This document shows, piece after piece, positions 42,194 through 63,050 of a DNA stretch of 64,000 nt. The notes under the pieces were generated by a model. That model did no database searches and was not told the origin of the DNA. It saw only the letters and a list, made by a program, of their open reading frames with translations. A program made the position numbers and the translations under genes. The stretch spans positions 2,012,272 to 2,076,271 of the forward strand of contig OZ245018.1 in assembly GCA_965223825.1 (NCBI GenBank), written 5' to 3'. The DNA comes from Gammaproteobacteria bacterium (GTDB taxonomy: Bacteria > Pseudomonadota > Gammaproteobacteria > CAJXQU01). Numbering within the stretch: the first letter of the stretch is position 1; every line of letters starts with the position of its first letter.

Positions 42194-42263
42194 ACCGATC
42201 GCCTCATATGACACTTTATGTTAATGATCGAAAATATATAATTCATATACGTGAATTTTATCT

Positions 42264-42291
42264 ATTCTTTTTTTAATTCTTAATTCTTAAT
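42264..42291. repeat. Heptanucleotide tandem repeat (TTAATTC)x4 in the promoter region of the hydrolase gene.
   Basis: I read it directly: ttaattc ttaattc ttaattc ttaattc. Confidence 0.6.
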
Positions 42292-42374
42292 TCTTAATTC
42301 TTTTAAATAATTTTTCTTAAAAATTTAAACAACACTATTATTAAATTTTAGTTGAACTGATCAAGTCGACAGAT

Positions 42375-42413
42375 AAAAAAATGCGGGTTAAAGATATAAA
42401 ATCAATAACCCGC
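42375..42413 (-). terminator. Rho-independent terminator (minus strand) between the 4-oxalocrotonate decarboxylase and hydrolase genes.
   Basis: On the minus strand it reads GCGGGTTA ttgattttatatctt TAACCCGC followed by ATTTTTTT. Confidence 0.55.
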
Positions 42414-42595
42414 CAATACTGGGACGTCAAATGGCTAGAGAGTTAAAGGAAGTCACAATCATCCTGATTGTCGTGCTGTCATCCTTGCGAAGATTAAATG
42501 AACTCTAGAATCACTTAATCCACATTCGTTACATTACATCCTTCACTTTTCTCAACTCTGCCCAGTCTACTGTTAACGACTTACTTCACTTCAAA

Positions 42596-44439: not shown

Positions 44440-44449
44440 GCTTAAGCCC

Positions 44450-45355: not shown

Positions 45356-45433
45356 TTTTCTATCCTCTTACCAACCTGGTCATTAATTTAGTCGTTTGGT
45401 TGGTCATTTTTTTAATTTGATCATTATTTTTAT

Positions 45434-46225
45434 TTATTCAAAACACAGCGAAGCGTTTCCCATCCCACCAACATGCACGGTCATATGATCACCCGGTTTA
45501 ATCGGAATGAGTGGGACAAGTGATCCAGATAAAATCACGTCACCAGCTTGCAGTGGAATCTCAAACTTGCCGAGTGTATTGGCTAACCATGCAACGCAAG
45601 TTAACGGTGAACCTAACGCCGCTGCTCCAGCACCGGTTGCAACGATCTCCCCATTTTTTTCTAACACCATACCGACCGTGGTTAAATCTAATTTCCGTGG
45701 GCTGATCGCTTGATGTCCGAGTGCAAAGTATCCGCACGAAGCATTGTCCGCGATGGTGTCTTGAATTTTGATTTTCCAGTCTCGGACACGTGAATCGACA
45801 ATTTCAAAACATGGCACAACAAAGTCCGTTGCGCGCAAGACGTCCGCAGCCGTCACACCGGGACCGGTTAAATCTTTTTTTAATACAAATGCGATTTCAC
45901 CTTCCGCACGTGGTTGAATCATCTTTTCACTGATCGGAATCGTTTGACCCGTTTCATAAACCATCTGATCGGTTAAATAACCAAAGTCCGGTTGATGCAC
46001 ACCCAGCATGTTTTGGACGGCTTTACTGGTCACACCGATTTTTTTACCGATGACTTTTTCGCCGGACTCTAATCGGTTATCAAGCAAGCGGGTGGAAATC
46101 GCATAAGCATCTTCAATGCTCATTTCAGGTTCACGATCAGTAATCGGTTCGATCACCTCACATGAACGTAATGCGGCAAAAAGATCATCACCGTATTGTT
46201 TAATTTTTTTCTTTTCCATGCTCAT
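45434..46225 (-). CDS. dmpE: 2-oxopent-4-enoate (2-hydroxypentadienoate) hydratase.
   Basis: The motif IGKKIGVTSKAVQNMLGVHQPDFGYL matches the MhpD/DmpE/XylJ hydratase branch. Its ATG at 46225 overlaps the HMS dehydrogenase stop (ATGA). Confidence 0.75.
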   Translation of the reverse strand: MSMEKKKIKQYGDDLFAALRSCEVIEPITDREPEMSIEDAYAISTRLLDNRLESGEKVIGKKIGVTSKAVQNMLGVHQPDFGYLTDQMVYETGQTIPISEKMIQPRAEGEIAFVLKKDLTGPGVTAADVLRATDFVVPCFEIVDSRVRDWKIKIQDTIADNASCGYFALGHQAISPRKLDLTTVGMVLEKNGEIVATGAGAAALGSPLTCVAWLANTLGKFEIPLQAGDVILSGSLVPLIPIKPGDHMTVHVGGMGNASLCFE

Positions 46226-47682
46226 AGTTTCACGCAAATATTTTTAAGCTCGGTATAAAACTCGAGTGAATGAACACCGCCTTCACGACCAATACCGGAA
46301 CGTTTCATGCCACCAAATGGAGTACGTAAATCACGTAAGAACCAACTATTTACCCACACAATGCCGGCTTCAATTTTACTCGCGACACGATGCGCTCTTG
46401 ATGAGTTTTCTGTCCAGATCGCAGCACATAATCCGTACTCTGTATCATTCGCCAGTGCGATCACTTCCTCTTCAGAATCAAATGGGCGGATATGGCAGCA
46501 AGGGCCAAAGATTTCTTCTTGAACCACCGCAGCATCGTCCGGTAAATCTGTCCAGATTGTTGGTTCGATCCACGCGCCATTTTGCATTTCACCTGGCATG
46601 TCGGGTATACCACCACCGATTACGACGGTTGCGCCCTCTTCCACAGCTTTTTTGTAATACGAAACGACTTTATCGCGATGCCCTTTACTAATCAGTGGGC
46701 CAAGGTTTGTTTCCGCATCTTTCGGATCACCGAGTTTAAGTTTTGTTACCTCGTCTTTTAATCGACGAACAAATTCTTCATAAATTGGACGTTCAACGTA
46801 AACTCGCTCTGTGCCAAGGCAGACTTGTCCGCAGTTAACAAATGTTGATCGCATCGTGCCTTCAATCGCTTTATCCATGTCGCAATCAGCGAAAATAATG
46901 CCTGGGTTTTTCCCCCCCATTTCCATGGAGACAGGTCGTGACCCTGTCGCTGCCGCACGCATGATAATTTCTCCGGTGACTGTTTCACCGGTAAACGTGA
47001 TCGCATCGACATCTCGATGTTCTGTCAGGAATGCACCAGCAGAATCACCACCAAAACCATTCACGACGTTATAGACACCTTTCGGTACGCCTGCCTCATT
47101 CATAACTTCACCTAACAAGGTCGTTGTGAGTGGTGTTTCTTCCGAGGGTTTGACAATGACGGTATTACCACACGCGAGTGCTGGCCCGACTTTCCACGTC
47201 ATCAACAACAGTGGCAAGTTCCACGGTGAGATCACGGCTATAACACCTTGAGGGACGCGGGTCGCATAATTGATCGCGCCGGTGCCATCTGGTGTCGCCA
47301 TTTCAAACGCTTCTGTGGGTACATTTTTTATCGTGTCAGCAAACACTTTAAAATTTGCTGCGCCCCGTGGGATATCGATGTGACGGGCGAGTGAATAAGG
47401 TTTACCAGTATCAAGGCACTCGGCTTCGAGAAAATCGTCAAAACGCGCATCAATTCCGTCCGCAATTTTGTACAAAATCGCTACGCGATCTTGCAAAGTC
47501 ATTTCTCCCCAAGGGCCATTTAAGGCTGCTTTTGCTGCTGCGACGGCAGCATCGACCTCGGCGCGCCCACCTTCATGCACGCGCGCAATGACACTACCGT
47601 CTACAGGTGAAATATCATCAAACATTTTTCCATTTGACGAACCGACGAATTCCCCACCAATAAAATGTTTTATTTCTTTCAT
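46222..47682 (-). CDS. dmpC: 2-hydroxymuconic semialdehyde dehydrogenase (NAD+ aldehyde dehydrogenase).
   Basis: It is 486 aa. ALDH motifs include EMGGKNP (as SMEMGGKNPGII) and a catalytic Cys in FVNCGQVC. Confidence 0.9.
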   Translation of the reverse strand: MKEIKHFIGGEFVGSSNGKMFDDISPVDGSVIARVHEGGRAEVDAAVAAAKAALNGPWGEMTLQDRVAILYKIADGIDARFDDFLEAECLDTGKPYSLARHIDIPRGAANFKVFADTIKNVPTEAFEMATPDGTGAINYATRVPQGVIAVISPWNLPLLLMTWKVGPALACGNTVIVKPSEETPLTTTLLGEVMNEAGVPKGVYNVVNGFGGDSAGAFLTEHRDVDAITFTGETVTGEIIMRAAATGSRPVSMEMGGKNPGIIFADCDMDKAIEGTMRSTFVNCGQVCLGTERVYVERPIYEEFVRRLKDEVTKLKLGDPKDAETNLGPLISKGHRDKVVSYYKKAVEEGATVVIGGGIPDMPGEMQNGAWIEPTIWTDLPDDAAVVQEEIFGPCCHIRPFDSEEEVIALANDTEYGLCAAIWTENSSRAHRVASKIEAGIVWVNSWFLRDLRTPFGGMKRSGIGREGGVHSLEFYTELKNICVKL

Positions 47683-47710
47683 AGGATGTTTATTCTCTAT
47701 TTATTGTTTT

Positions 47711-48130
47711 TTATGTAATTGCGTCTAAACCGGCTTGAGCGCATAACTCGTCTTGCTCTTCCGATGCACCTGAAACACCTATGGCGCCAACACAATCATC
47801 TCCTAACCTGATCGGAACACCTCCACCGAAGGCGACAAACCGATCACGCTGCACAATGCCTTCACGTAGTAACGATCCTTGTGGTAACACCTCACGCCAC
47901 TGACTTGTTGGAATGCTAAAACTGGCCGAGGTATAGGCTTTATCGATCGCGATATTGATGGACATGTACGGTGCATTTTCACTGCGTAAAAACGCCACCA
48001 ACTGCCCACTGCTATCCACAACAGCAACGGCTATGTGCACCCCTAATTCAGAGGCCTTCGCGATTGCTGCCTTGACAGAAACCTGTGCTGACTGCCAATG
48101 AATCAATTGTTTTTTATGTGTAATAACCAT
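47711..48130 (-). CDS. GlcG/HbpS-like (DUF336) protein, first gene of the lower-pathway operon.
   Basis: It is 139 aa. The region AVVDSSGQLVAF...GGGVPIRLGDDCVGAIGVSGASEEQDELCA fits DUF336. Confidence 0.6.
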   Translation of the reverse strand: MVITHKKQLIHWQSAQVSVKAAIAKASELGVHIAVAVVDSSGQLVAFLRSENAPYMSINIAIDKAYTSASFSIPTSQWREVLPQGSLLREGIVQRDRFVAFGGGVPIRLGDDCVGAIGVSGASEEQDELCAQAGLDAIT

Positions 48131-48210
48131 TTATTTAAAAAGAAATATCAGTTGTTCCGCATTTTCTATAAAATGTGTTTTACCTACTATTAACTACACA
48201 ACTAAATAAT

Positions 48211-48240
48211 ATCGATATTTTATATTTTGTCGATATTTTA
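48211..48240. promoter_or_regulatory. Copy A of the shared operator-like motif ATATCGATATTTTATATTTTGTCGATATTTTAT, in the divergent promoter between the lower-pathway operon and the GntR gene.
   Basis: It matches copies B and C at nearly every position. Confidence 0.5.
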
Positions 48241-48316
48241 TGCAAGGTATGAATTACTGTATTTCTGTCTATAATTCACACCTAATTACAAAAATAAAAA
48301 GGCTTAAATAACGTCA

Positions 48317-49000
48317 ATGACCGAACCTAAATCTAAAACGCTCTTTGAATCTGTTTTTAACCGAATTCGTGCCGATATTATTGATGGCAAACTTGATCCG
48401 GATTCCAAACTTCGCATTGAAGAATTACGCGAAAAATATGAAACAAGTGCCAGTCCTTTGCGTGAAGCATTAAACCGATTGGCTGGCCAAGGTTTTGTGA
48501 TCGTGACCGGTCAACGCGGCTTTCGTGTCTCGCCTGTTTCCATGGCCGACATAGAGGACATCACGCGCATGCGTATCATGCTGGAATGTGAAGCCTTAAA
48601 AGAAAGCATCGAAAAAGGCGATGATGAATGGGAAGCCAATATTATTGCCTCTTATCATCGGCTCACCAAAGCACATGAAATTAGAGAAGCGAATTTTCAA
48701 GAATGGGAGATCCGTAATAACGATTTCCACGAAACATTGATCGCCGCCTGCTCTTCTACTTGGCTACTCAATTTCAGACATGTTCTCTACGAACAACATA
48801 AACGCTACCGACTCATTTCTATTTTGGAACATGATTACAGTCGAGATATTCGTGCAGAACATGAAGCCATTAAAGAAGCGACTATCGAACGCGATGTTGA
48901 TCGTGCACTTGAAGAAACACGTAAACACATTCAACGCACGCTAGATTCAACAAAACTCAAAATCTCACAGCATGATGAAGAGTTAAAGAACCGAGCCTGA
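48317..49000 (+). CDS. GntR-family regulator (FadR/FCD subfamily), divergent from the meta-pathway operon.
   Basis: It has an N-terminal wHTH (ELREKYETSASPLREALNRLAGQGFV) and an FCD-like helical C-terminal domain. Confidence 0.8.
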   Translation: MTEPKSKTLFESVFNRIRADIIDGKLDPDSKLRIEELREKYETSASPLREALNRLAGQGFVIVTGQRGFRVSPVSMADIEDITRMRIMLECEALKESIEKGDDEWEANIIASYHRLTKAHEIREANFQEWEIRNNDFHETLIAACSSTWLLNFRHVLYEQHKRYRLISILEHDYSRDIRAEHEAIKEATIERDVDRALEETRKHIQRTLDSTKLKISQHDEELKNRA

Positions 49001-49058
49001 TCGTGATCACGTTTCGTGATCACGACCGACTCGTTGATACCTTTCCCAAATCAATAAA

Positions 49059-51419
49059 TTAGTTACTATTCGTTCCAGACTTCGCTTCGAGAATAAAGCT
49101 CGGACGAAAAGTTCGGATCCATGCTGGAATAATAAACATCGCAGCGATCGCATTAAGAATTAACATCACGATCAACAATAATGCCGCATCTGCTTGAAAG
49201 CGCATTGTCGAAATAAAGACCCACATCACCACGCCACAAATCAATGTCATGGCAGTAAAGCCGATGGCGATTCCCGTAGTATTCATCGCTTCTTTAATTG
49301 CTTCATTCAAATCACCGATGCGAATAAATTCCATCCGAATGCGATCCATAATGTAGATTGAATAATCGATACCAACACCGATACCAACAGCAATGATCGG
49401 CACAGTGTTTACATTGATACCAATTCCAGAAATACCCATATAGCCATACGTTAATGTGGTCGCAAATGACATGGCGAGTAACATCAACCAACCCGCATGG
49501 AAGGACCAATAAAATAAAGTAACGAAAACCAGAATTAATAAGAAAACGAGAGGAATAACAATAATATTCGTTTCATACGCGGCTTCATTAATCGCCGCCG
49601 TTACCCCGATCACACCTCCCGCCAGTTTAAGCGTGAAACCCTCAACCTGAGCGGCAGCAGAATGGGACCATTCTTTAACCATGTGAATCGCTCGACGAAT
49701 CGTTTCACCTTTATGATCTTTATAATAAAAAACCATATTGGCATTTTGTTCATCCGTATCAATAAACTCGAGCAACGCACCCGGTACTGGACTGGACATC
49801 ATATAGGTGAACATTAAACCGCCCGTTTCGAGATTATCCACGGGGTAACTTAACCACCTTGGATCGTTATTGTGGATTGTTGTACGTACTTGTTTTACCA
49901 AGTTTGGTAAACCTTTCGCCCCCCCTAGTTCCGGATCCATCAACATATAATTTTGAAAATCCGTCAGTGCACGGATCACATCTGGGTTTTTAAGACCGGC
50001 TTTTTCCTCAGTATGCGCAATAATGTAGAGTTCTTCTGAGCCCGGAAATAATTCATTCGTTGCTTTGGAAGAAATGTTGTAATCGTGATCTGGATAGAGC
50101 AACGGTGAACCCGGTTCTGACTCACCAATCTGTACCCAAGAACTAAAATACACACCAACGCACATCATCACCAACACACCGAATAACGTCGATTTTGCAC
50201 GATTCCTTGTCGCCGTTAATCCGGAAAGATCCGGCAATAGTTTCTGTAAAAAGTTTTGCTTTTGTTCGAAGTTTTTTGGTACAGGTAATAACTCAAGAAG
50301 GACGGGAACAAGAATTAATACCGTAAAGATCACACTACCTGCCCACAATGATGCGTAAATGGCCAGTTTGTCATTGATCGGCACAGAGCCGAGTGAAATC
50401 AACAATAAACCAATCGCATCGGAAATAACCCCAAGAGAACCAGGGCGAAACAAATCTTCAAATGTTTTACGAGCAGCTTTTTGTTTATCTTTAACTCGTG
50501 CAAGTTCATGGTAAAAACGTTCAACGAGTTGAATACCATGCGACATTGCTCGTGCAGAAATTAAAAATGGTACAACCATCATTAATGGATCGAGGTTGTA
50601 ACCGAGTAAGGAAAGAATCCCCAAACCCCATAAAGTCGTTAATAAAATACCAATACTCGGGAGTAACACACCATAGAGTTTTCGAAAATATAATGTCAGC
50701 AAAGCCAACATGATCAAAACGGTGTATAAAAAGATTTGTAGTATTTCGTTAACGTAGCTAGAAACCCAACCGACTAGTACGGGCTGACCGGTAGCGTAGA
50801 TTTCTATGCCTTCAGCCGCCTCAGAATCACGAATATCTTTTAATTCATTGAAAACTTGTTTGTAGTTTAATTCGCCCTCATTCAAAGTTCCGCGAATAAG
50901 TGCTGCACTAAGGTCCGGCGAAACTAATAAACCATAAACGCGCGGATTTGCGATCACATCATTTTGAATACCAGTGAGTTCTTCCTCTGAATAGCTGTCT
51001 TGTAATGGATCGTAATACGGCGTGGATTCAACCGTGCCCATTTCATTCAACCAGATTTTCCGTGTTGTTCTATGCGTTAAACTGGTCACCAAATTATGGT
51101 TTATGCCTGTTAATTCATCCACTTTTTGCGTTATGCGATGAATACGGGCCAGTGTCTCTTCATTAAAAATAGTGCCTTCATTCACTTTGAGTGAGACGAT
51201 AACATTATTTGCACCACCGAATGTGTCACGAATAATGTTATGTGTTTTGATGTATGAATGTTCTTGTGGGAGCAGATCTGCATAGTCTGACACCATTCGA
51301 ACGCCCGGCACTTGTATCGCAAAAATTGCTGTGATCAATAAAATAATTGACGCGGTAATTTTCGGGTGAGCGAACACGATTTTATCGATTTGTTTTAGTT
51401 TTTTTATTAGGTTAATCAT
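49059..51419 (-). CDS. RND-superfamily transporter of the MMPL/HpnN-like type (two 6-TM bundles).
   Basis: It is 786 aa with 12 predicted TM segments in a 1+5 / 1+5 arrangement and large periplasmic loops. It is the last gene of the DUF1302 module. Confidence 0.75.
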   Translation of the reverse strand: MINLIKKLKQIDKIVFAHPKITASIILLITAIFAIQVPGVRMVSDYADLLPQEHSYIKTHNIIRDTFGGANNVIVSLKVNEGTIFNEETLARIHRITQKVDELTGINHNLVTSLTHRTTRKIWLNEMGTVESTPYYDPLQDSYSEEELTGIQNDVIANPRVYGLLVSPDLSAALIRGTLNEGELNYKQVFNELKDIRDSEAAEGIEIYATGQPVLVGWVSSYVNEILQIFLYTVLIMLALLTLYFRKLYGVLLPSIGILLTTLWGLGILSLLGYNLDPLMMVVPFLISARAMSHGIQLVERFYHELARVKDKQKAARKTFEDLFRPGSLGVISDAIGLLLISLGSVPINDKLAIYASLWAGSVIFTVLILVPVLLELLPVPKNFEQKQNFLQKLLPDLSGLTATRNRAKSTLFGVLVMMCVGVYFSSWVQIGESEPGSPLLYPDHDYNISSKATNELFPGSEELYIIAHTEEKAGLKNPDVIRALTDFQNYMLMDPELGGAKGLPNLVKQVRTTIHNNDPRWLSYPVDNLETGGLMFTYMMSSPVPGALLEFIDTDEQNANMVFYYKDHKGETIRRAIHMVKEWSHSAAAQVEGFTLKLAGGVIGVTAAINEAAYETNIIVIPLVFLLILVFVTLFYWSFHAGWLMLLAMSFATTLTYGYMGISGIGINVNTVPIIAVGIGVGIDYSIYIMDRIRMEFIRIGDLNEAIKEAMNTTGIAIGFTAMTLICGVVMWVFISTMRFQADAALLLIVMLILNAIAAMFIIPAWIRTFRPSFILEAKSGTNSN

Positions 51420-51436
51420 TTTTATATAAACCGTGT

Positions 51437-52384
51437 TTAATTTGATTCATTCAAATTGATCAAGCTCAACATACCCGCTCCTCCAACCAAGAATTTTTCT
51501 TGATTGACAGCCTCGGTCAGCTTGAAGAAAAAACGTGACTGAACGGGTAATTCCATTGGCGTCCATTCATCTGCATTGCCAATTTTTTTCTGTATAACTG
51601 TTCCATAGTCACCAACAGCGATGATGTAATCTCCCATCATCGTCATACCGAATAATGGTGCAGTAGTATTCGTTGTTTCTTTATTCCAGCTTTGTCCGCC
51701 ATCGTGTGTTTCATAGATAATGCCGCTTAATCCCGCAATCCAACCGACTGAACTATCTCGAAACGTACTGGTTAGGGGGGAGAAATCATTTGGTACAGGA
51801 TCAGCAAAATTCCACGTTTGGCCACGATCATTTGTGATCAGCACCGTACCGAATTCACCGGTAATAAATCCATTATCCTGATCAACAAATTCCACGGTGC
51901 TCAAAATGACATCTTCACCCAATGAACTGTCTTTCCAACTTTTTCCAACATCATCACTTGATAAGATGGTGCTGAAACTACCGACTACCCATAGTGTGTT
52001 GTGTTGATCACAATCAATTGCTTGCGGAACTTCTGGTGTCCCTAAAGGATGATTTACCCATTCAGATAAATTCTCTTTCGCTGTCCAAACGTCACCTTCC
52101 ATAGATAAAGCTGCAAACGTGCCATTTGGACAAAGCGTAATTTCGATTAAAGAAGGTTTGGCTGATATTTGATGACGCTGCCATTTATCAGTACCTTTTG
52201 CAGCATGTAAAATAATGCCTTCTGATCCAACAGCAACCGTTGTCGTATCAGAATCGATCGCGGACATGAAAATATCCGTTCGACGAACTGATTGTTTTTC
52301 AGTGACGTCAAGCCCATCCAATGTGAGTGGCGCTTCGCATCCCATCAGTATTAACGGTGCGAATAAAATAAATAAATTACGCAT
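51437..52384 (-). CDS. BNR/Asp-box repeat beta-propeller lipoprotein (Ycf48-like).
   Basis: It has a lipobox (LILMGC). Asp-box motifs SxDxGxSW (DVGKSWKD), GQTWN and GGQSWN are present. Confidence 0.7.
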   Translation of the reverse strand: MRNLFILFAPLILMGCEAPLTLDGLDVTEKQSVRRTDIFMSAIDSDTTTVAVGSEGIILHAAKGTDKWQRHQISAKPSLIEITLCPNGTFAALSMEGDVWTAKENLSEWVNHPLGTPEVPQAIDCDQHNTLWVVGSFSTILSSDDVGKSWKDSSLGEDVILSTVEFVDQDNGFITGEFGTVLITNDRGQTWNFADPVPNDFSPLTSTFRDSSVGWIAGLSGIIYETHDGGQSWNKETTNTTAPLFGMTMMGDYIIAVGDYGTVIQKKIGNADEWTPMELPVQSRFFFKLTEAVNQEKFLVGGAGMLSLINLNESN

Positions 52385-52513
52385 GTTTATTAACCGTTCA
52401 TCAACACCCTGTCGAAAAGCAACAGTTTAAAAAATACCTGTCGAGCAGTTATTGAATTATTTTAATTATGAAATAAAAAAGTGCCCTCATTATTGAGGGC
52501 ACTTGCTCGCAAA

Positions 52514-53818
52514 CTAACGACCACTACTGCGCATGTTTTGCACAGAAAATTTACTTTGTGGATTCAACTTAGGATCAACCTGTCCTTTAAATTGTCCCGT
52601 TGTGCAGTGACCTGCTTGTACGTCAACCATACTGAAGCTGTCATCAACAGAAACACCGGTGCCTTTATTAACTGGCAAGTGATGATCTGGATGTGCTTGG
52701 CCGATATACCATGATTTCCAGTATTTTCCTGCGCGGTCATAAATGATCGTACGTGGGAAAGTGAACGTCTGTGCATCGACATAATGAACACGTTTGCCAA
52801 TGGGGTGGTTACCATCAACCGGGACAGATTCAAGAACATACGCTTTACGTAATTGCCATGTCACATTTGCGAAACAGCCACCTTGTCCACCAAAATCAAC
52901 AAACTTGTATTCTGGATCGTTAAACTCATCTGTCAGAGGCATGTCGTTGTGATTATAAAAAGGCAGCAACACTGTTTTTGTCCCTTTATATGTCCACTTC
53001 ATATCTGAAATCCGACCGTTATAACCTTCAAAATCTTCGATCATTAAATCAGCACCAAGAAATGAATCCGTCGTTTGACCAGAAGCAAGACGACGAACAC
53101 GACGCTGGAAACCAAGATACAACCAGGCATCATCACGTTTTAAATCGTCTTCATAACGATGAATTAAAAGCTGGGTGTTTTTTACGTCGAACGGTTCTTC
53201 AACCATCGCGTAAATTGATCGGAAAATTTCAGATGGGTTTGGAGAAACTTCAGGTAATGGTTCGTAGTTAACGCGATGCTTCCAATTAAGAAAGTGGAAG
53301 TTGATTTTAATTTCACGCTCTACTTTACCGCTTTGCAGATCACGATAGCGCCAATAGAAAGGATAGATTGCAGCAGTATCCCCCCAGTTATAACCATATT
53401 TAAAATTCCATGCGAGTTTTTCACCTGCACGAGGATCACTCATATCCGGCTCTTCCGGAAAAGGACGCCCGGCTAGGAAACCAGAAATTTCACCTGGCTG
53501 GCTACCCAATGTGGTTTTATTTAAGTTTTCTTTTGTAGCATTTATGTAACCATCATGAAGGATGTAGTCCGTGGTTTCACCAACTTTAATTTCTAACCAA
53601 CCATCCTTTACGTGCTTATACATTTCAGGATCGAGTACATCTTTTGCAGCATCAACATTACCGGCATTGATGACCATTCCTGGTGTAACGCCATCTACTG
53701 TAGGAAATCCATTTTTATAAGGATAAAACGAATTTTCTATATCTTCTGGCGATGCAGCCTGTACTGTAGCGATCGGCAAAAAAGCTGCCAGCATGATCGC
53801 GATTCTCTTTAATTTCAT
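52514..53818 (-). CDS. DUF1329-family periplasmic protein (LolA-like fold family).
   Basis: It has a signal peptide (MKLKRIAIMLAAFLPIATVQA) and is 434 aa. A GAGGAG RBS is present. It is adjacent to the DUF1302-like gene. Confidence 0.7.
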   Translation of the reverse strand: MKLKRIAIMLAAFLPIATVQAASPEDIENSFYPYKNGFPTVDGVTPGMVINAGNVDAAKDVLDPEMYKHVKDGWLEIKVGETTDYILHDGYINATKENLNKTTLGSQPGEISGFLAGRPFPEEPDMSDPRAGEKLAWNFKYGYNWGDTAAIYPFYWRYRDLQSGKVEREIKINFHFLNWKHRVNYEPLPEVSPNPSEIFRSIYAMVEEPFDVKNTQLLIHRYEDDLKRDDAWLYLGFQRRVRRLASGQTTDSFLGADLMIEDFEGYNGRISDMKWTYKGTKTVLLPFYNHNDMPLTDEFNDPEYKFVDFGGQGGCFANVTWQLRKAYVLESVPVDGNHPIGKRVHYVDAQTFTFPRTIIYDRAGKYWKSWYIGQAHPDHHLPVNKGTGVSVDDSFSMVDVQAGHCTTGQFKGQVDPKLNPQSKFSVQNMRSSGR

Positions 53819-53945
53819 GGGTCTCTCCTCTTGCTTATTTATTGCTGTTTTCTAATTTCAGCAATTTTCAGAATCCTGTCAGGACATCTTTTATTATGAT
53901 CTGCAAGAGCTAACTAAATAGGGTCAGCTCTTGCAGGGGGTTACT

Positions 53946-55942
53946 TTAAAAACGATAACGAACTAACAGTTGAACTTGATCTTCATTTTGCGCCATACCA
54001 ATTGGGCCAGAGCGGAATCGGCCTAATGGTTCAAAACCACTTAAACCAAGACTTTGGCTTGGTGCGCCTGTTCCAGTAAATGGAGGAAAAGGATCAGCAC
54101 TTCTTGCATCATCAAATGGTCGCGCACCTGTACCGAACTTAAAGTTCGCACCTAACGTGACACGCCAGTTGTCATTCACAAGCCAATCGATAGACGGTGC
54201 AACTGCTGCGGCTTGTGCACGAACATCGTACGCGGTGATGATTTGCGGGCTAAGTCGATCGTTCATGTACCAACCTTTTACCAATAACGTCGTGATAAAG
54301 TTATCTTTCCAGTCGGGATACCAATCTTACCTAACGGTCCGTCTTCCAGATCGTGCTCAAGAATATGTTGACCAAATACTTGTGCAGAAAATAAGAAAGC
54401 ACGCGTTTTGTTTAAGAAAGGAATGAAAGTTGGTCGATCTGCGCCGACAACCCAACGGATAACATCAGACTCTGAATACATTTCCGGTTTTGAGGTATTC
54501 GCAAACTCTTCACCAGTTGTCCATGCAGCTTCAACCCGAAAAGCTGTTTTCAAGCTATCCACATAAAAGTCCGCTGAACCACCGAGTAAACCGACACGTG
54601 GAAAATGAATGTCGAATGCGATCAGATAATCACGATTTAATTCAACACCGCCGGTACCGACTCCCGGAACGGTTACACCGGGTGCAATAAAAGGATTCAC
54701 TGCAGCCACATTACCCGCTCTCAGCGATGGAAGTTGTGAGCGGTAGTACAATCCGTTAAGTGAGAAACCCACGCCTTTATAAACACCCTCTAAGCGCATA
54801 CCGACTTCGGTTTCATCCAATTCCCAATCAGGCATCACTGCTTCACGAATACCGATACTGTGAGCTGGGAAATCCGTTTGTGCACCGCCACCGGCAAAGT
54901 TAGAAACAGAACAGCCATTTTCCCAACAATTATTCAGCGCGCGGAATAAGGAACCTGCATCGAGAATGGAGTTTGGTGTACCACCCTGGCCAAGGTTACT
55001 AGGACGAAATTTTTCGAACTTCCACAAGAACTGTAAGTTCAGATCATCAAATGTTTCTGTCGCACCCCAACGGTATTCCGCGGTTGCGATCCCCATTGGA
55101 ATACGAATATCTTCCAATTCGTCATAGATATTATTTCGTGAATAATCCACTGGGTTGATAACATCTAAAACACGGAATAAATCCGTACGGCCCCACACGA
55201 CCTGTTGGCGACCAAAGGTTAAATCTAATTGACGGCCGTTGGCTAATGGGATGGTGCCCGAGACATACGCTTCACGAATGACATCCGCTCGGCTATTAAA
55301 CTCCGGGTTTTGTAGATCGCTTTCTTCATAATCCAAATAGCCATCAATACAACCACGCGGATCAATATTGCACGGCCTCACTGGAACGCCGATTAACACA
55401 CCACCGTCATCTCCGTGTAATTGTGAGCCCAATTGAACCAAGCCTTCATTTGGATTCTAAGTGACATCAAAACCGAAGCCACCGCCTCCCGGTAAGCCTG
55501 GATTACCGGCAGTCACCAATGAGTTACCCCAAGGTGTGGTAATACCCGCAGGCACAGCCGATGGACCTAATACTCCGGCTGGAACACCGGCAGACGTATA
55601 TTCAACAGAGCCACCCGCATTTCTACCGTATTCATCATCGTTCAGATCATAAACCGCATCGTAGCTCGCACGAAGTGTGCCGTTGAATTGAAAGTTTTTG
55701 AAAATACCCACATCACCTAATGTTTTTGAAATTTCCAGGTTTAGGGTGTTGCGCATTTTAGATAACCCTTCTCCGTGTAAACGGACATGGGTGTCAGTCT
55801 CGAAATAACCGTGGATCTCCGCTTCTTCCGCATTCACTCCAGCACTTGCCGCTGTGAGTATTCCTGCAACCAGAAGCGATGTGGGCGTCATATTACTGGA
55901 AATATGAGCGTTCCCCTCCTGCATTCGCTTACGAACAGACAT
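53946..55942 (-). pseudogene. DUF1302-family outer-membrane protein gene, apparently disrupted. It is split into three ORFs by an in-frame TAG (55457-55459) and a +1 frameshift near 54280-54330.
   Basis: ORF 55457..55942 carries the signal peptide. ORF 54278..55441 is in the same frame as the first, with only a TAG and five sense codons (NPNEGL) between them. ORF 53946..54284 is in a different frame and ends ...LLVRYRF, a typical beta-barrel C-terminus. The three fragments total about 660 aa, which fits DUF1302. Confidence 0.55.
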
Positions 55943-56072
55943 GCTTAGCCTCCTCTTTTTTATTGTTTAAACAACTCGTTTTACAGAGTTGTCCTGCACC
56001 GCTTATTTATGTATTTTTAGAAATACTTATTTATATCTATTTTTATTTTTAAATCTTACGCAGACTAATTAT

Positions 56073-56102
56073 ATCGATATTTTTATTAATGTCGATATTT
56101 TT
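56073..56102. promoter_or_regulatory. Copy B of the shared motif, ATATCGATATTTTTATTAATGTCGATATTTTT, about 130 bp upstream of the DUF1302 gene.
   Basis: I read it directly; it aligns with copies A and C. Confidence 0.5.
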
Positions 56103-56203
56103 TTATTTTTGCGTTGAACTTAATTATTTTTGATTTATTTCAATAGGTTGGATATAGGATCAGAGAATGGCTTTATATAAAACCATTCTCTGATCAACCA
56201 AGA

Positions 56204-57253
56204 TCAAGCGCGATGTTCTTGTTCTATCATCTGTTTCAAGCGTCGACGAACCCGTACATTGCCGACATCGCTGGATAACAAAACAGGATTCAGTGAAAAG
56301 AGATCGGTGATCTCAATCTCTTCTTGTTGCAGATCAATCACGGGTTTATCTTCATCAGCAAACGCGGCTTGCAAGCCTTCCTTATGCATAGCGTTATATT
56401 CCGCATCATGCTGCCTGTAGTTACGTGCTGATCCAAAAAAGTAGTGCGTTGTTTTCGCCGTTTCTGGTGTCATTAAATGGAAGTCATACAGTACAACCCC
56501 GTCGTTTTCATAATCCTGACTGCCTTGCACCGCTCCGACCTGTAAATGCATATTCGACGGTGCGCGCCATTTAACAGTCAGGTATTGATCAGCCGTACCT
56601 TCAGGTTCTTTTAAATGATTCCCCAACAGTGGCATTGCCGGATCCGCTTCCCACAACCAATTGATGTAGATGTCATCCCCATCATCTTTCACATCAGGAA
56701 TGATCGGGCTCAGCTTACCTTTGGTGTTGATCAGTGGACCGTGTAAGTGATCAATATGCGAAAGATCCATAATGTTATCGGTGATCAACTCGTAGTTCGC
56801 GTTGTTGTGCAGCACGAAATAAAACACTGCATCCTTCGGACTATTAGTCAAAATACTGCAATCCAGAATTTTATCTTCATCGGCCAGATCAGCATCGCCC
56901 ATCCAGATCCACAAAAAACCATCACGCTCAACTAATGGGAAGGATTGCACCACAGCTGCTTTAGGGATTTTGCCGTCACCATGCGGACTGTGTACGCACT
57001 TGCCAGTGCAATCAAACGTTAGGCCGTGATACTTACACGTAATGTCATCGCCATGACGTTGCCCAGCGGATAAAGGTAAAAACCGGTGTGGACAACGATC
57101 ACGTAAGGCAACCACCTCACCATTTTCTTTACGATAAATCAGAACGGATTGATCGAGAATTTTTCGTCTAAATAAATCCATTCCATTAATTTCTGTCACC
57201 AGTGCAGCCACATACCAGGCATTACTCAAAAAAATATTTTTATCTTCACTCAT
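56204..57253 (-). CDS. Rieske non-heme iron oxygenase, VanA/TsaM-type alpha subunit (O-demethylase/monooxygenase-like).
   Basis: The Rieske motif is CPHRFLPLS...CKYHG. A mononuclear iron region HNNANYELITDNIMDLSHIDHLH is present. It is 350 aa. The first ATG (MSEDK) has a GAGGAG RBS. Confidence 0.85.
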   Translation of the reverse strand: MSEDKNIFLSNAWYVAALVTEINGMDLFRRKILDQSVLIYRKENGEVVALRDRCPHRFLPLSAGQRHGDDITCKYHGLTFDCTGKCVHSPHGDGKIPKAAVVQSFPLVERDGFLWIWMGDADLADEDKILDCSILTNSPKDAVFYFVLHNNANYELITDNIMDLSHIDHLHGPLINTKGKLSPIIPDVKDDGDDIYINWLWEADPAMPLLGNHLKEPEGTADQYLTVKWRAPSNMHLQVGAVQGSQDYENDGVVLYDFHLMTPETAKTTHYFFGSARNYRQHDAEYNAMHKEGLQAAFADEDKPVIDLQQEEIEITDLFSLNPVLLSSDVGNVRVRRRLKQMIEQEHRA

Positions 57254-57558
57254 GCTGGTTCTCCTCACACGATTTATTTCAAGCCTCGACCTCTTTTGGG
57301 TCGATGAATAGGGAAAATAGTTTTAGAAAAATCCATCCGTCGCGTTAACAAAGCTCGACAAACACCGACGGGTAATTTTCCTGTATGAGGACTATACGAG
57401 GGCGCACTATGACGTTCACCAACCTTTAGGATGGTCGTCTTAATTGGTTGAAATACTGTGATATTTTAGAAATTCATCGTAAAGCATGAATGAAACGGAT
57501 GGCGATCAGGCAGCGTTCAAAACAAACACCGATCAGGCTGCTGTATAAATGGGTGGGA

Positions 57559-60375
57559 TTATTGCAAAAACCCAAGTTCACGCGCTTTAGAAACGGCACT
57601 GCCGCGACGGTGGACATCGAGCTTGGTAAAAATTTGTTGCCAGTACCACTTAACCGTATTTGGTGAAAGTGACAATCGCGTTGCTATTTCAGAATTAGAA
57701 CGATCATCCGCCGCCATCTCTAAAATTTCCACTTCGCGCTCTTTTAATAAAGCTTCCTGCAAACTAAAATCCATTGTTTGCGATCGTGGAAAATGTTGCA
57801 TTGGATCATTAGAAAAAGCAGTCAGCAACCGGGTGATCAGATCTGCAGAATCTGAAGCGTTTTCTGATTGCAGCTCACGCAAAAGCTTTTGTATCGGCTG
57901 TCCTTCATCAAGAAAAAAACGAACTGAATGTTCTGCACCTTTTAAATGCAAACACGTTTGCAGCACACCACGTGCTGCGGAGTGATCACCATTTTCCGCT
58001 GTGATCGCCGTCAAACAGAGTCCTGTTTGTAAAGCCGGTTCCCAACAACCGCGATCAGATAAAAACTGCCACCATTGTTTAAGCAAACGAATAGCCACCG
58101 CCGATTGTCCGCGCAACGTCGCTAATCTCGACCACGCAATCGCCATAACGCAGGTCGCTGTCGAGGCATTTTCATCGGGTTTGAGATTGATTGGCGGCCC
58201 CATTAAGCCACTCTGTCGGCCACATTCTGCAGCTTGTTGCGCATCACCCAATAAGCAATGAAGTCGGACCCGTTCCGCGATCAGATGTGTTTCTAAACGC
58301 GAAAAAGCAAAACGTGCTGCCTGTTTTATTCCTTCGTTTAAACATTCGAATGCAACATCCAAATTGCCATCAAAGACATGCACACGCGTCTTCGTTAAAT
58401 AGCCTGCAATCAACTGATCAGACAGCCCAAGTTTTTCACAGTGGCCTAAATGCTCGTTCACCAAATCACGCGCAAACTCAATTCGATTTTGCGTGTAGTA
58501 CAGATCTGCTAACAGCAAACCCGGTGTAGAAGAAATGGAGGAAAGTCGTCCATGCAATTCCGTGGCATCATTCAGCGCATTTTTAAATAATGCTTGCGCT
58601 TCGGTGTATTCCGCTTGCATTCGCAAAGTAATACCGACCAAGGCATCATGATAAACACTACCGTAAAGCACATTATGCTCAACACAAATTTCATGCATGG
58701 CTGCGGCCAAGCCCAGTGTCTCCCCCACTTCGAAATGATCGCGTCGTGCACTTTGTAATAAAATTTGTACAGAAGTCAGCATGTGCATCGCTGGATCAGA
58801 TGGGTAATTCGCAGACAGCCACGCTTCACACGCGATTTTAGTTTTCGCGAGATCGTCAGAAATCGCCGCTAACATCATTTCTCGGTGTTTCAATTTGCCT
58901 TCAAGATAGTGTAACTGCTTTGGTGCAAGACCTGACTCGACTAATAATATTTTTTTATCGGAAATAGTCGCGTGGAGCTCTCGATGTCTCGCCAGTTCTT
59001 CACTGATCAGATCGAGCATGGCGGCTCCCTTTTCGAAATCCCAGCGCATGATATGTTGCCACGCGAGATCTAACATTAAACGCGGCTGACGTTTCAAAAC
59101 ATCGTATGGAATACGGGCTGCTTGCTCTTCTAATGTGGTCACATGTCCGGTGGAAAACAACGTTTCACTGACATGATCTAAAAGCGCAGCAGCACGGGCT
59201 TTATCTTCAGCACAACAAGCATGATGGATCGCATCCAAATAAAAATGATGTTGTTCAAACCACAACGATGCGCGACTGTGAAAGACGCGGTATTTATCCG
59301 GATCGGCCTCACGCAAGCGCCTATCGAGAAACTCCGCAAACAGATGATGGTAGCGATACCAATCATCCGTCTCGTCTAAAGAAAAAATAAAAATATGGGA
59401 TGCAATCACCTGTTCAAGCAATGCATGACAATCTTTCATTTCCGTGACCGCCGCGCACAAACCGCGGTTTAACCGTGTCAGTATGGACGTTTGCAGTAAA
59501 AACTCGCGCACAGGTTCATCCAGCGTACGCAACACTTCTTCGGTTAAAAAATTTGCAATGTCACGATATTCACCGGAAAGATCGTGAATCCAATGTTGTG
59601 GGTTTTGTACTTTCTGCAAAGACAACGAGGCGAGTTGTAAACCTGCGACCCAACCTTCTGTACGATCAGCAAGTAACGCCAGATCAGGGTTTCGTAAAGG
59701 AATTTTAGTGGTCTTAGCAAAAAACTCGCGCGACTCGGCTAATGTAAAACGCAGATCATCGACATCCAGCTCATGCAAGCGTCCAAGGGCTCGCAATCGG
59801 CCTAACGACACGCCCAACGGCGCATGGCGCATGGCGACAATCCATTTCACACTGGCTGGACTACGCATGAACAATTCACTAACAGTGTCGAGTAGATCAG
59901 AATTCGTAATCAGATGAAAGTCATCAATAAAAATCCTCACCGGCTGATCTAGCTGGGCAATCTCATTAATAAATAAGGTCATCAACGTATCCGATGACGG
60001 ATTCGCACCACGCTCGATCAGGCCCAGAATATCGCGCCCGAAACCGGCAGAAGATTTGCGCACGGCTTCCACTAACGCATGCGCAAAGCGCACCATGTCG
60101 TTATCGGTTTTATCTAACGTAAACCAAGCGCAGATGCTTTGTTCTGATTGCGCTTGCGTAAATATTTGTGCGAGTAAGCTGGTTTTGCCATAACCGGCCG
60201 GCGCGGTAACCGTGAGAACAGAACAGCTTTCTGTCGCGCTAAACACACTTGCTAGACGTGGCCGTGCGATCAGCAGCCCGCGCTGCGACGGTGGCTTGAG
60301 TTTGGTCTCTAGTACAACAGATAAATAAGGCATCAGGTGCGTCGTGAAGTGTTTGTTTATTATTTTCTCAGACAC
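57559..60375 (-). CDS. MalT-type large LuxR-family regulator (STAND/AAA ATPase plus helical repeats plus C-terminal LuxR HTH).
   Basis: A Walker A motif (TAPAGYGKTSLL) is present. The C-terminal HTH reads REVEILEMAADDRSNSEIATRLSLSPNTVKWYWQQIFTKL. The track's start is GTG; an alternative ATG lies at 60333. Confidence 0.85.
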   Translation of the reverse strand: MSEKIINKHFTTHLMPYLSVVLETKLKPPSQRGLLIARPRLASVFSATESCSVLTVTAPAGYGKTSLLAQIFTQAQSEQSICAWFTLDKTDNDMVRFAHALVEAVRKSSAGFGRDILGLIERGANPSSDTLMTLFINEIAQLDQPVRIFIDDFHLITNSDLLDTVSELFMRSPASVKWIVAMRHAPLGVSLGRLRALGRLHELDVDDLRFTLAESREFFAKTTKIPLRNPDLALLADRTEGWVAGLQLASLSLQKVQNPQHWIHDLSGEYRDIANFLTEEVLRTLDEPVREFLLQTSILTRLNRGLCAAVTEMKDCHALLEQVIASHIFIFSLDETDDWYRYHHLFAEFLDRRLREADPDKYRVFHSRASLWFEQHHFYLDAIHHACCAEDKARAAALLDHVSETLFSTGHVTTLEEQAARIPYDVLKRQPRLMLDLAWQHIMRWDFEKGAAMLDLISEELARHRELHATISDKKILLVESGLAPKQLHYLEGKLKHREMMLAAISDDLAKTKIACEAWLSANYPSDPAMHMLTSVQILLQSARRDHFEVGETLGLAAAMHEICVEHNVLYGSVYHDALVGITLRMQAEYTEAQALFKNALNDATELHGRLSSISSTPGLLLADLYYTQNRIEFARDLVNEHLGHCEKLGLSDQLIAGYLTKTRVHVFDGNLDVAFECLNEGIKQAARFAFSRLETHLIAERVRLHCLLGDAQQAAECGRQSGLMGPPINLKPDENASTATCVMAIAWSRLATLRGQSAVAIRLLKQWWQFLSDRGCWEPALQTGLCLTAITAENGDHSAARGVLQTCLHLKGAEHSVRFFLDEGQPIQKLLRELQSENASDSADLITRLLTAFSNDPMQHFPRSQTMDFSLQEALLKEREVEILEMAADDRSNSEIATRLSLSPNTVKWYWQQIFTKLDVHRRGSAVSKARELGFLQ

Positions 60376-60464
60376 AAAGAACGCTCCCGCTGTTATCGAC
60401 TCATTTCATTGATTGCAATGCCACTACGACACGGAGTTGCACTTATTCACCTTCGACCAGAAAA

Positions 60465-61427
60465 TTACAGATCTAACACCAACACTGGCGACTTCGAACG
60501 TGAGCAACACGGCGTGAACTGGTCATTTAACGCTTTCTCTGCATCCGTTAAATACATATCACGGTGATCCGGCGTACCTTCCAAAACGCGCGTGAGACAC
60601 GTACCGCAAATTCCTTGCTCACAAGAAAGCGGAATATCAACACCCTGTGCTTCCAGCGCTTCAATAATTGTTTTATCCGGCGGGATTATGTAAGTCGCTC
60701 CGGTACTGGCGACTTTGATGGTAAATGCTTGATCACCCTCTTCACTGAGATCAATCGCACCGAACGATTCCGTATGGATCACATCATCTGTCCAACCAAA
60801 CTGATCGCGCGCGGTTGAGGTGACAAAATTCATAAAACCATCGGGCCCACAAACGTACAGATGTGTATCTGCTTCCGTCGATGCAAAAAGTGTCCCCAAC
60901 GCCAACTTTTGATCAGCCGCACCATCATCAAAATGAAAATGAATAAACGGCTTCAAACTACCGTCGATAAGTTCATTGTGAAAAGCCGCATGCAAACGAC
61001 TACGACAACAGTAATGCAATTCGAACGATTGAGAGTGATCAAATAAATGTTGTGCCATCGCCAGCATCGGCGTGATCCCAATCCCTCCGGCGATAAGGAT
61101 AGAATGTGCCGCTTCGCGTAATGGAAAATTATTCCGTGGTGCACTTATGGTGATCTGATCACCCTCATTGATTTTCGCGTGAACGGCTTTGGATCCTCCG
61201 CGCCCCGCATCTTCTAACTTGATCGCGAGGCGGTAATGATTCCGTTCTGAAGGTGAAGAACAAATAGAATATTGACGAACAAACCCATCAATATGCAAAT
61301 CAATATGTGAACCGGCTTCGAAGCTGGGTAAAACCTGACCCTCACCAGGCGAAAGTTCAAGACAAAGAATATCTTCCGCAGCGAGAAACTTGCGAGAAAC
61401 AGTAACGGTTAAGGTGTGATCATTCAT
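60465..61427 (-). CDS. VanB/PDR-family oxidoreductase (FMN-binding FNR-like domain plus C-terminal plant-type 2Fe-2S).
   Basis: An FNR-like N-terminus (RQYSICSSP) is present. The C-terminal ferredoxin reads LSCEQGICGTCLTRVLEG. It is 320 aa. Confidence 0.85.
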   Translation of the reverse strand: MNDHTLTVTVSRKFLAAEDILCLELSPGEGQVLPSFEAGSHIDLHIDGFVRQYSICSSPSERNHYRLAIKLEDAGRGGSKAVHAKINEGDQITISAPRNNFPLREAAHSILIAGGIGITPMLAMAQHLFDHSQSFELHYCCRSRLHAAFHNELIDGSLKPFIHFHFDDGAADQKLALGTLFASTEADTHLYVCGPDGFMNFVTSTARDQFGWTDDVIHTESFGAIDLSEEGDQAFTIKVASTGATYIIPPDKTIIEALEAQGVDIPLSCEQGICGTCLTRVLEGTPDHRDMYLTDAEKALNDQFTPCCSRSKSPVLVLDL

Positions 61428-61548
61428 GATTTATTCGCTTTTATAGTATTTTTTAGAAAATTGACTGGTCTAACCTGATAGATTAAATCATCAAGGTTTT
61501 TCCGTTTCAATTACTTTGGGTGGAACAATAATCAGCGAGTAAAAGAAT

Positions 61549-61572
61549 GACACCATCCTTTCGGATGGTGTC
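61549..61572. terminator. Hairpin GACACCATCC tttc GGATGGTGTC followed by TTTATCTTT, downstream of the C23O gene.
   Basis: It has a perfect 10-bp stem. T-rich sequence on the + side and ATTCTTTT on the minus side mean it could act bidirectionally. Confidence 0.55.
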
Positions 61573-61587
61573 TTTATCTTTCATAAA

Positions 61588-62508
61588 TCAAGTTGTAACA
61601 GAAAGGAAACGTTCATTGAGTTTCTGATCATGATAGAAAATCGCGCCACCGAGCTCTTCAGCCGTCCAAGTGATCGGTTCATGATCGGGATACCAACTAT
61701 AGTCACCACAAAATACTTCGTTACGGTTACCGGAAGGATCAAAAAAGTATATGGTTCTACCGCGCGTAATACCATGACGGGTTGGGCCAATATCAATGGG
61801 TATACGATAGCGCCCCATTAAATCCGCCGCGTGAAGCACTTCTTCCCAACTGTTCAGTAAAAAAGACACATGGTGCAAACGACCTTTTTCTTCATTTCTT
61901 ACGAACGCAATATCATGCGCCTTCATACCGCAACTCATGAATGAACTGATCTTAAAATCACCATCCATAACGCGTTCGGTTTCTTGAAAACCCAAGACCT
62001 CTGTGAAAAGTTTCACCACGCCATCCAGATCATCTCCGTATAGCAAACAATGATCAAACCGTTGTGCTTTCATGCCTTTTAAATTGTCTGGAAATGGGTG
62101 CGGGTTTAAGCGTCCCATTTCTGTACCTTTTATGTCTTTTTCAGCAAATAATTCAAATGCATGACCGGTTGGGGCAATAAAGCGAACGCGCTCGCCACAA
62201 TGCTTTAATTCACCGGCAGGAATCTGTTCCACATCAAGACCAAAGTCGATCAGATCTTGGGTTAATTTGCGCAATGTCTCCGCACTATCAACCTTGAATG
62301 CCATGAAATCCATGCCTGGAGAATCTGCTTCACGTAGCACGATTGAGAAATAATCTTGCTCATCCCAACCTTTGAGATAAACACGACCTTGATCATCGCG
62401 ATCAACCTCCTCCAGTCCGAGTCGTTCGCAGTAATGCACCAAACCTTCTTCAAGATCCAATAAGCGCACGCTGACATGACCCGGGCGTAACACACCTTGT
62501 AATGGCAT
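61588..62508 (-). CDS. dmpB: Catechol 2,3-dioxygenase (extradiol, type I).
   Basis: The N-terminus [68 protein letters not shown] is very close to the XylE/DmpB pattern. A GGAGGAGG RBS is present. It is 306 aa. Confidence 0.92.
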
Positions 62509-62681
62509 AAAGTACCTCCTCCATGCTTCGATTTATCGAATTATTATGGTTACCGATCCGAAAGCGACGATTGCCGACCTCACTCGGAATTTTTATATTT
62601 TTCTAATTTAAGCGAATGATTTTTCAATATTTTTAAGAAATACCAGTCACATTAAACGGTCATTGTTATTTTTCTGATTAT

Positions 62682-62711
62682 ATCGATATTTTTATAAATG
62701 TCGATATTTTA
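62682..62711. promoter_or_regulatory. Copy C of the shared motif, ATATCGATATTTTTATAAATGTCGATATTTTAT, between the ferredoxin and C23O genes.
   Basis: I read it directly. It lies about 175 bp upstream of the C23O start and about 28 bp after the ferredoxin stop. Confidence 0.5.
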
Positions 62712-62738: not shown

Positions 62739-63050
62739 TTAGATTTTCTTGTTTAAACACTTTTTCAACTTGCCGTTCACTTCCAGCGTGAGATCACTCT
62801 CAGGATGACAACGACAAGCCAGTACGTAACCTTCAGCTTGCTCAGCCTCAGTAATGTGCTCACGACTCATTTTTCGAGCGTGATAATTCCCATTGAGAAC
62901 GCGCACTTTGCACACACCACAGCCGCCTCCACGACAGCCGGACATGATGCCTTTCTTACCGACCCGCTCCATGCTGGAAAGCAGGTTTTGATCATCCGAG
63001 CAGGCATACTCAACCTGAATATCCTGTAAATAGATCGCATACTTTTTCAT
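62739..63050 (-). CDS. dmpQ: Plant-type [2Fe-2S] ferredoxin of the XylT/DmpQ type (C23O-reactivating ferredoxin).
   Basis: It is 103 aa. The motif CRGGGCGVCKVRV...LACRC is present. It sits between the phenol hydroxylase reductase and C23O, as in dmp/xyl operons. Confidence 0.8.
   Translation of the reverse strand: MKKYAIYLQDIQVEYACSDDQNLLSSMERVGKKGIMSGCRGGGCGVCKVRVLNGNYHARKMSREHITEAEQAEGYVLACRCHPESDLTLEVNGKLKKCLNKKI

Follow-up and report, generated by a model that had tools for sequence, protein, structure and literature searches.

Why do three intergenic regions of one stretch of bacterial DNA carry nearly the same AT-rich 32-bp motif? The question is raised by a 64,000-nucleotide segment from an uncultured gammaproteobacterium (assembly GCA_965223825.1, contig OZ245018.1, positions 2,012,272 to 2,076,271), referred to here as the window, which holds genes for the degradation of phenol and catechol by meta-cleavage. 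Our analysis leads us to propose that a promoter and its operators form one compact unit in each of the three copies (A, B and C), the paired boxes serving as operators for a GntR/FCD regulator of the AphS/BphS family encoded at 48317-49000. On the sequence evidence, this regulator very probably represses three units: the lower meta-pathway operon, the catechol 2,3-dioxygenase (C23O) unit and a module of DUF1302, DUF1329, BNR and RND genes.

Paired boxes at three operon starts

Three copies of TATATCGATATTTT-N7-GTCGATATTTT lie in the window, at 48207-48238 (A), 56069-56100 (B) and 62678-62709 (C), as a first-pass annotation of this DNA had reported to within 2-4 bases at the edges. We scanned the window with TCGATATTTT-N7-GTCGATATTTT, a pattern with 21 specified bases and a 7-nt gap, allowing up to 3 mismatches. 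It matched exactly three times, always on the plus strand and with 0 mismatches (48212-48239, 56074-56101 and 62683-62710); the number expected from 100 shuffles of the window was 0.01, and 0 of the 100 shuffles reached three. Each copy consists of two 14-nt boxes whose CG centres always lie 18 bp from each other, which confirms the palindromic pairing and the spacing described earlier. The 9-mer TCGATATTT, an extended half-site, has six occurrences in the 64 kb, one at each half-site and none elsewhere. When the three regions are aligned, conservation is limited to about 33-45 nt; according to a repeat finder, B and C agree at 89% of positions over 44 nt, and A is 68% identical to B. An Rfam scan of the whole window returned no match, ruling out a known RNA element.

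All three copies are intergenic, upstream of minus-strand operons and in one orientation relative to their targets. Copy A separates two divergent genes: the HbpS-like gene at the head of the lower meta operon (minus strand, starting at 48130) and the GntR/FCD gene (plus strand, from 48317). Copy B precedes the DUF1302 operon, and the same module is likewise found downstream of a box in three related loci (L028, L118 and L213). Copy C occupies a 230-bp gap between a 2Fe-2S ferredoxin gene (dmpQ-like, 62739-63050) and the C23O gene (61588-62508; TIGR03211, 423 bits). These placements, too, agree with what had been noted at first, now on the basis of a Pfam and NCBIfam gene map.

The boxes resemble a published operator. 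The palindrome AwATATCGATATwT, since refined to the consensus AAATmTCGAkATTT, is bound at multiple sites per promoter by two repressors of the GntR family, AphS for phenol (Comamonas testosteroni TA441) and BphS for biphenyl (Suvorova & Gelfand 2019, PMC6449761). A position weight matrix was built from the 56 AphS/BphS sites in Table S3 of that paper, all of them betaproteobacterial. Among the 64,000 positions of the window it ranks the six boxes 1-5 and 9; their scores of 12.6-18.6 bits fall inside the range of the published sites (7.1-21.7), and they carry 1-4 mismatches to the 14-nt even palindrome AAATmTCGAkATTT. In copy A, box 1 (TAATATCGATATTT, 48207-48220) scores 18.6 bits, ranks first in the window and has a single mismatch to that consensus, and the weaker box 2 (TTTTGTCGATATTT, 48225-48238), 18 bp from box 1, scores 12.6 bits and ranks ninth. 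In copy B the boxes are TTATATCGATATTT (56069-56082, 16.5 bits) and TAATGTCGATATTT (56087-56100, 15.8 bits); in copy C they are again TTATATCGATATTT (62678-62691, 16.5 bits) and then AAATGTCGATATTT (62696-62709, 17.0 bits). Box pairs at 18-19 bp are present among the published sites, at Daro_2782 (-155/-137) and Pnap_4153 (-115/-96) (PMC6449761, Table S3). Because the matrix ranks, the scores and the 18-bp spacing all fit published sites, we conclude that each copy is a pair of AphS/BphS-type boxes. Two boxes per promoter also agree with the trait of this operator family of placing multiple sites at each regulated promoter. Single boxes of 12.7-14.4 bits are found at window positions 24558, 44533 and 1660; they lie in coding regions and are probably chance matches.

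The operator type, the regulator family and the logic of the regulon are thus already known, and what we describe is an ordinary regulatory feature in a new host. The first-pass annotation did not recognise that the operator family, or its link to the DUF1302 module, had already been published. A full-text literature search with the bare sequence ATATCGATAT returned only irrelevant papers.

The GntR gene (48317-49000, plus strand) is the proposed binder, a role to which its Pfam domains, its similarity to BphS and the enrichment of boxes upstream of its homologues all point. The predicted 227-aa protein has an N-terminal PF00392 domain (E 5e-17) and a C-terminal PF07729 domain (E 3e-17), and the solved structures nearest to it are FCD-type GntR regulators. 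Over 209 residues it shares 41% identity (E 2e-61) with the GntR protein of Polaromonas naphthalenivorans CJ2 that is named BphS in PMC6449761. The gene for this CJ2 protein heads the bph operon, within the first 30 kb of plasmid pPNAP01, and in the sequence upstream of it we read the boxes AAATGTCGATAGTA and CAATATCGACATCT, 19 bp apart. More broadly, the window GntR is 43-51% identical to homologues from aph- and bph-type clusters. Its plasmid homologues in Paraburkholderia, Cupriavidus and Simplicispira (43-46% identical) are divergent from meta-cleavage genes, with boxes in the intergenic region. NCBIfam holds no AphS/BphS model, the best match being CsiR, below its cut-off, and the best 120 protein homologues carry generic names only, with no named AphS/BphS among them. 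The window encodes a second GntR/FCD regulator (32213-32932, minus strand), which is distant from the one at 48317 and 23-27% identical to the GntR orthologues that stand beside double boxes in five other loci (L069, L118, L036, L110 and L111).

Overlap with predicted promoters and the sign of regulation

A consensus scan found one minus-strand sigma-70-like promoter in each intergenic region, coinciding with the motif. Before the lower meta operon, the predicted promoter at 48206-48233 (minus strand, 10 of 12 matches) is the only site found in the region: its -35 hexamer, TCGACA (48228-48233), lies inside box 2 and is followed, after 16 nt, by a -10 hexamer, TATTAT (48206-48211), that overlaps box 1. 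The DUF1302 module is preceded by a predicted TCGACA-16-TATAAT promoter (56068-56095, minus strand, 11 of 12 matches), again the only site found, and the orthologous site in L028 is identical. The same TCGACA-16-TATAAT arrangement is predicted before C23O (62677-62704, minus strand, 11 of 12 matches). This promoter register is the best match in 12 of 17 related loci, and in four others an alternative, TTGAAA-16-TAAAAT, is shifted by 11 bp and still overlaps the boxes. TGTCGA in box 2 is the reverse complement of the -35 hexamer TCGACA. Overlap with a promoter would explain why the orientation of the motif and its 18-bp spacing are fixed, and why a G interrupts the palindrome of box 2.

This geometry bears on the sign of regulation. 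For the repressor BphS of KKS102, the operators cover the core promoter; for the activator BphR1 of KF707, the operator does not overlap the promoter (PMC10282184). Because the boxes overlap the -35 and -10 hexamers in all copies, as in the repressor geometry of KKS102 BphS/AphS, we infer by analogy that two GntR dimers per promoter repress transcription; binding itself, the nature of the effector and the start sites of transcription are likewise read from sequence and precedent. According to the mechanism that we propose, a sigma-70-type promoter reading into each minus-strand operon would have its -35 hexamer, its spacer and its -10 hexamer covered by the boxes, so that two bound dimers would occlude RNA polymerase. 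Release by an effector would then co-induce all of the repressed units. By analogy with BphS and 2-hydroxy-6-oxo-6-phenylhexa-2,4-dienoic acid (HOPDA), the effector would probably be a ring-fission product, for example 2-hydroxymuconic semialdehyde (HMS).

Near-identical contigs (L213-L216) extend beyond the window and show dmpKLMNOP preceded by a gene for an XylR/DmpR-type sigma-54 activator and by a 438-aa open reading frame (ORF438) with no Pfam match. The region upstream of dmpK (L213 4531-4801) contains TGATCAAATGAT-type repeats, which resemble the upstream activating sequences of DmpR/AphR, together with TGGCATGACGTGTGCA, TGGCAT-N7-TGCA, a -24/-12-like element. Phenol hydroxylase therefore appears to be driven by DmpR and sigma-54, and C23O appears to have its own operator-controlled sigma-70 promoter at copy C, as had been suspected from the position of that copy. 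No terminator was found upstream of C23O, and transcription may also read through from the upstream operon.

A fourth strong box, AAATATCGACATTT (16.8 bits), is located at L213 1328-1341, upstream of the ORF438-dmpR unit and about 8.7 kb beyond the right end of the window. It suggests that GntR also controls the sigma-54 activator, forming a cascade, and in our model this site just outside the window would repress the unit for ORF438 and the dmpR-type activator. The location of the boxes follows the operator family as well: copies A and C and the fourth site precede the lower meta operon and GntR gene, C23O and the dmpR-type unit.

Several points weigh against the model of GntR repression at these promoters. 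Promoter hexamers in AT-rich DNA are weak evidence alone, and shuffles gave 1.5-1.9 matches per region. The CJ2 comparator is a BphS assigned by comparative genomics rather than the biochemically characterised KKS102 BphS or TA441 AphS, and it is of the LB400/KF707 type, some members of which are activators (PMC10282184). The copy number of the motif is that of the 64-kb window rather than of the complete source genome. No AphS-type box was found in the region upstream of dmpK (L213 4531-4801). Finally, unlike betaproteobacterial AphS, the GntR gene does not share an operon with the DmpR-type gene; it lies about 20 kb away, divergent from the meta operon, an architecture different from that of aphRS.

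In one alternative, GntR binds the boxes but acts as an activator or dual regulator, like BphR1 of KF707 or ORF0 of LB400. Family members do activate in KF707 and LB400 (PMC10282184), and CJ2 BphS, the closest of the named proteins compared here, is of LB400 type. Nevertheless, activation in KF707 goes with a non-overlapping operator (PMC10282184), whereas in every copy here the two boxes run across the best candidates for the -35 and -10 hexamers. We therefore consider activation improbable and prefer repression by GntR.

Conservation of the boxes with GntR orthologues

If GntR is the binder, the boxes should be found with its relatives. Our test set was independent of the motif: 80 metagenome loci selected solely by homology to the window GntR (44-71% identity), in which boxes with up to 2 mismatches were counted. 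Within 400 bp upstream of the GntR gene, boxes were 30-fold denser than elsewhere in these loci, with 40 in 32 kb upstream and 23 in the other 560 kb, and at least one box was present in 36 of the 78 loci that could be evaluated. Meta-cleavage genes accompany GntR in about half of the 80 loci: C23O occurs in 49, HbpS-like genes in 39, HMS dehydrogenase (HMSD) in 38 and DmpP in 32. In most of the closer homologues examined (at least 56% identity), the double box is kept with its 18-19 bp spacing and the spacer sequence changes. Conserved boxes around a changing spacer are a phylogenetic footprint.

We also scanned genome contigs with an 18-base pattern, which gave at least 118 loci. Among the matches listed, most are due to chance, in coding DNA or tandem repeats, and those that resemble the full motif are not random, several of them adjoining GntR orthologues or meta-pathway genes. 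A double box lies directly beside a GntR orthologue (47-69% identical) in L069, L118, L036 (Thiolinea disciformis), L110 and L111, and in Thiolinea disciformis it precedes a meta-pathway operon that includes the GntR orthologue (L036 1776-1807). Elsewhere it is found between C23O and DUF1302 (L028), between HbpS-like and HMSD genes in Roseiarcus (L029) and in an alphaproteobacterial metagenome-assembled genome (MAG; L050), and before XylR/DmpR-type activators in Thiothrix MAGs (L073 1002-1033 and L086 471-502). The motif travels with GntR orthologues across Gamma-, Beta- and Alphaproteobacteria, and its presence in Thiotrichaceae implies that the operator family extends well beyond the catalogued Betaproteobacteria. 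Other motif-like matches have no aromatic context: they lie by ABC transporter genes in Roseibium, after purL in Azonexus and by a TonB receptor gene in Cellvibrio. They may be due to chance, or other FCD regulators may bind there.

The proposal that the motif is a shared transcription-factor site is thus supported both by its match to the AphS/BphS operator and by its association with GntR orthologues. Which factor binds it had been left between three candidates: the divergent GntR, the MalT-type regulator and a protein encoded outside the window. The sequence evidence supports the divergent GntR and singles it out among the three, since the boxes match the operator of its family and co-occur with its orthologues. 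The MalT-type candidate did not survive. Its gene (57559-60375), between copies B and C, encodes a 938-aa MalT/LAL-type regulator with a LuxR-type helix-turn-helix domain; LAL regulators often bind repeated boxes, so that this one might bind the motif and activate the three promoters. Yet a MalT-type gene is present in 0 of the 80 GntR-selected loci and, among the matches listed, in none of the motif-selected loci with a double box; L028 and L118 keep the box upstream of DUF1302 without the segment that contains this gene; and the motif fits a published GntR operator. Because it never co-occurs with the motif or with GntR in the loci examined, the MalT/LAL regulator is effectively excluded as the binder.

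Weaker still is the possibility that the copies are a dispersed element resembling repetitive extragenic palindromes or miniature inverted-repeat transposable elements, or a duplication remnant, with no regulatory role: the 89% identity of B and C over 44 nt does reach slightly beyond the boxes, compatible with a recent cassette duplication, but we reject this view because there are just three copies in the 64 kb, all at operon starts and in a single orientation, because the boxes are kept at orthologous positions where GntR is 41-70% identical and the spacer and flanks diverge, and because terminal inverted repeats, an Rfam match and any extended similarity are all lacking.

The surrounding island and known systems

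The units that the GntR operators would control are encoded on the minus strand. The operon downstream of copy A (41378-48130) contains Pfam-assigned genes for an HbpS-like protein, HMS dehydrogenase, a hydratase, acetaldehyde dehydrogenase, an aldolase, a 4-OD decarboxylase-like protein and an HMS hydrolase-like protein, and the same arrangement stands beside the GntR orthologue in L036, L069, L132, L135, L141 and others. The operon downstream of copy B (49059-55942, by Pfam) comprises DUF1302, DUF1329, a BNR/Ycf48-like gene and an RND/MMPL exporter gene. A Dechloromonas aromatica operon of COG4447, COG1033, PF07044 and DUF1302 has been predicted to be under AphS control (PMC6449761). Downstream of copy C (56204-62508, by Pfam and NCBIfam) are genes for C23O, a VanB-like reductase, the MalT/LAL-type regulator and a VanA-like Rieske oxygenase.

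The last gene of this unit is followed by a perfect 17-bp hairpin (56158-56195; -26.5 kcal/mol, z -6), directly after the VanA-like stop codon and about 55 nt upstream of the copy B -35 hexamer. It is not followed by a U tract, and 0 of 200 shuffles were as stable. This hairpin is likely to end or stabilise a transcript, setting the C23O/VanB/MalT/VanA unit apart from the DUF1302 promoter.

The DUF1302 gene itself (53946-55942, minus strand) is disrupted in the window. An in-frame stop interrupts it at 55457-55459, and the loss of 1 nt from a run of C shifts the frame of its last ~112 codons. An intact 665-aa reading frame is present in the 99.4%-identical contigs L213 and L002, and the gene is broken at different points in strains L001 and L005 (74+477+106 aa). 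Such disruption could reflect recurrent pseudogenisation or assembly errors.

The VanB-MalT-VanA segment (56204-61427) looks like a lineage-specific insertion. It is absent from L028 and L118, in which C23O directly follows the ferredoxin gene with no copy C, and a double box and then DUF1302 come after C23O. Because they are absent from these relatives, both copy C and the segment are taken to be lineage-specific. A LAL-dependent promoter may lie in the 290 bp that precede the VanA-like gene (57268-57559). In a further relative, whose GntR is 77% identical to that of the window, an insertion of a transposase and the genes of a pyruvate dehydrogenase complex (E1, E2 and E3) separates the GntR gene from the RND/BNR genes (L219 10936-18055), implying that the island is rearranged between close relatives.

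The close similarity of copies B and C points to the duplication of a promoter-operator cassette. More speculatively, a portable cassette of about 45 bp, comprising an operator pair and a sigma-70 promoter, could have been copied in this gammaproteobacterial lineage and have rewired the pathway, uncoupling C23O from the sigma-54 phenol hydroxylase operon, bringing a newly acquired VanA/VanB-like oxygenase pair and the LAL regulator under GntR and creating a cascade from the repressor to LAL and DmpR. We regard this combination as possible but rather doubtful. If true, the cascades from repressor to LAL and from repressor to DmpR would be undescribed for AphS/BphS systems.

Overall, three promoters of a phenol/catechol meta-cleavage island, and probably a fourth, are assigned to a specific regulator of their uncultured, marine-type gammaproteobacterial host. 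The AphS/BphS regulon, known so far from Betaproteobacteria, is extended to Gammaproteobacteria, including Thiotrichaceae, and to some Alphaproteobacteria, and the 2019 prediction that places the enigmatic DUF1302/DUF1329/BNR/RND module in aromatic-catabolism regulons gains independent support. The case introduces no new principle. In practice, the 14-nt box serves well as a marker when such regulons are annotated in metagenomes.

How does this system compare with those already described? It shares with AphS of C. testosteroni TA441 and the betaproteobacterial AphS regulons (Arai 1999; PMC6449761) a GntR-family regulator, control of phenol and meta-cleavage genes, a 14-nt palindrome and several sites per promoter; C23O, lower-pathway genes and the gene for a DmpR/AphR-type activator are common to both (PMC6449761). 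The differences lie in the arrangement. The window GntR gene stands alone, divergent from the lower meta operon, whereas the AphS gene is part of the aphRS operon. AphS and AphR jointly control the phenol hydroxylase promoter, whereas here no box directly precedes the phenol hydroxylase genes. In addition, the host here is an uncultured gammaproteobacterium, the boxes are strict 18-bp pairs fused to a predicted sigma-70 promoter, and one site is followed downstream by genes for a LAL regulator and VanAB-like proteins.

BphS of Acidovorax (Pseudomonas) sp. KKS102 and Tn4371 is likewise a GntR-family protein, a repressor with multiple ATATCGATAT-type operators over the promoter; its gene is divergent from or adjacent to the catabolic operon, and it is released by a meta-cleavage product (Ohtsubo 2001, as cited in PMC6449761 and PMC10282184). 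That system governs biphenyl genes rather than phenol and catechol genes, and four sites are reported at one promoter there, whereas here two sites are found at each of three or four promoters. KF707 BphR1 has been described as an activator (PMC10282184), in contrast to the repressor role that we ascribe, by analogy, to the window GntR. Finally, the Pnap_4153-type BphS of CJ2, which is 41% identical, also has two boxes upstream of its gene, 19 bp apart there, but that gene is the first of the bph operon, whereas the window GntR gene is divergent.

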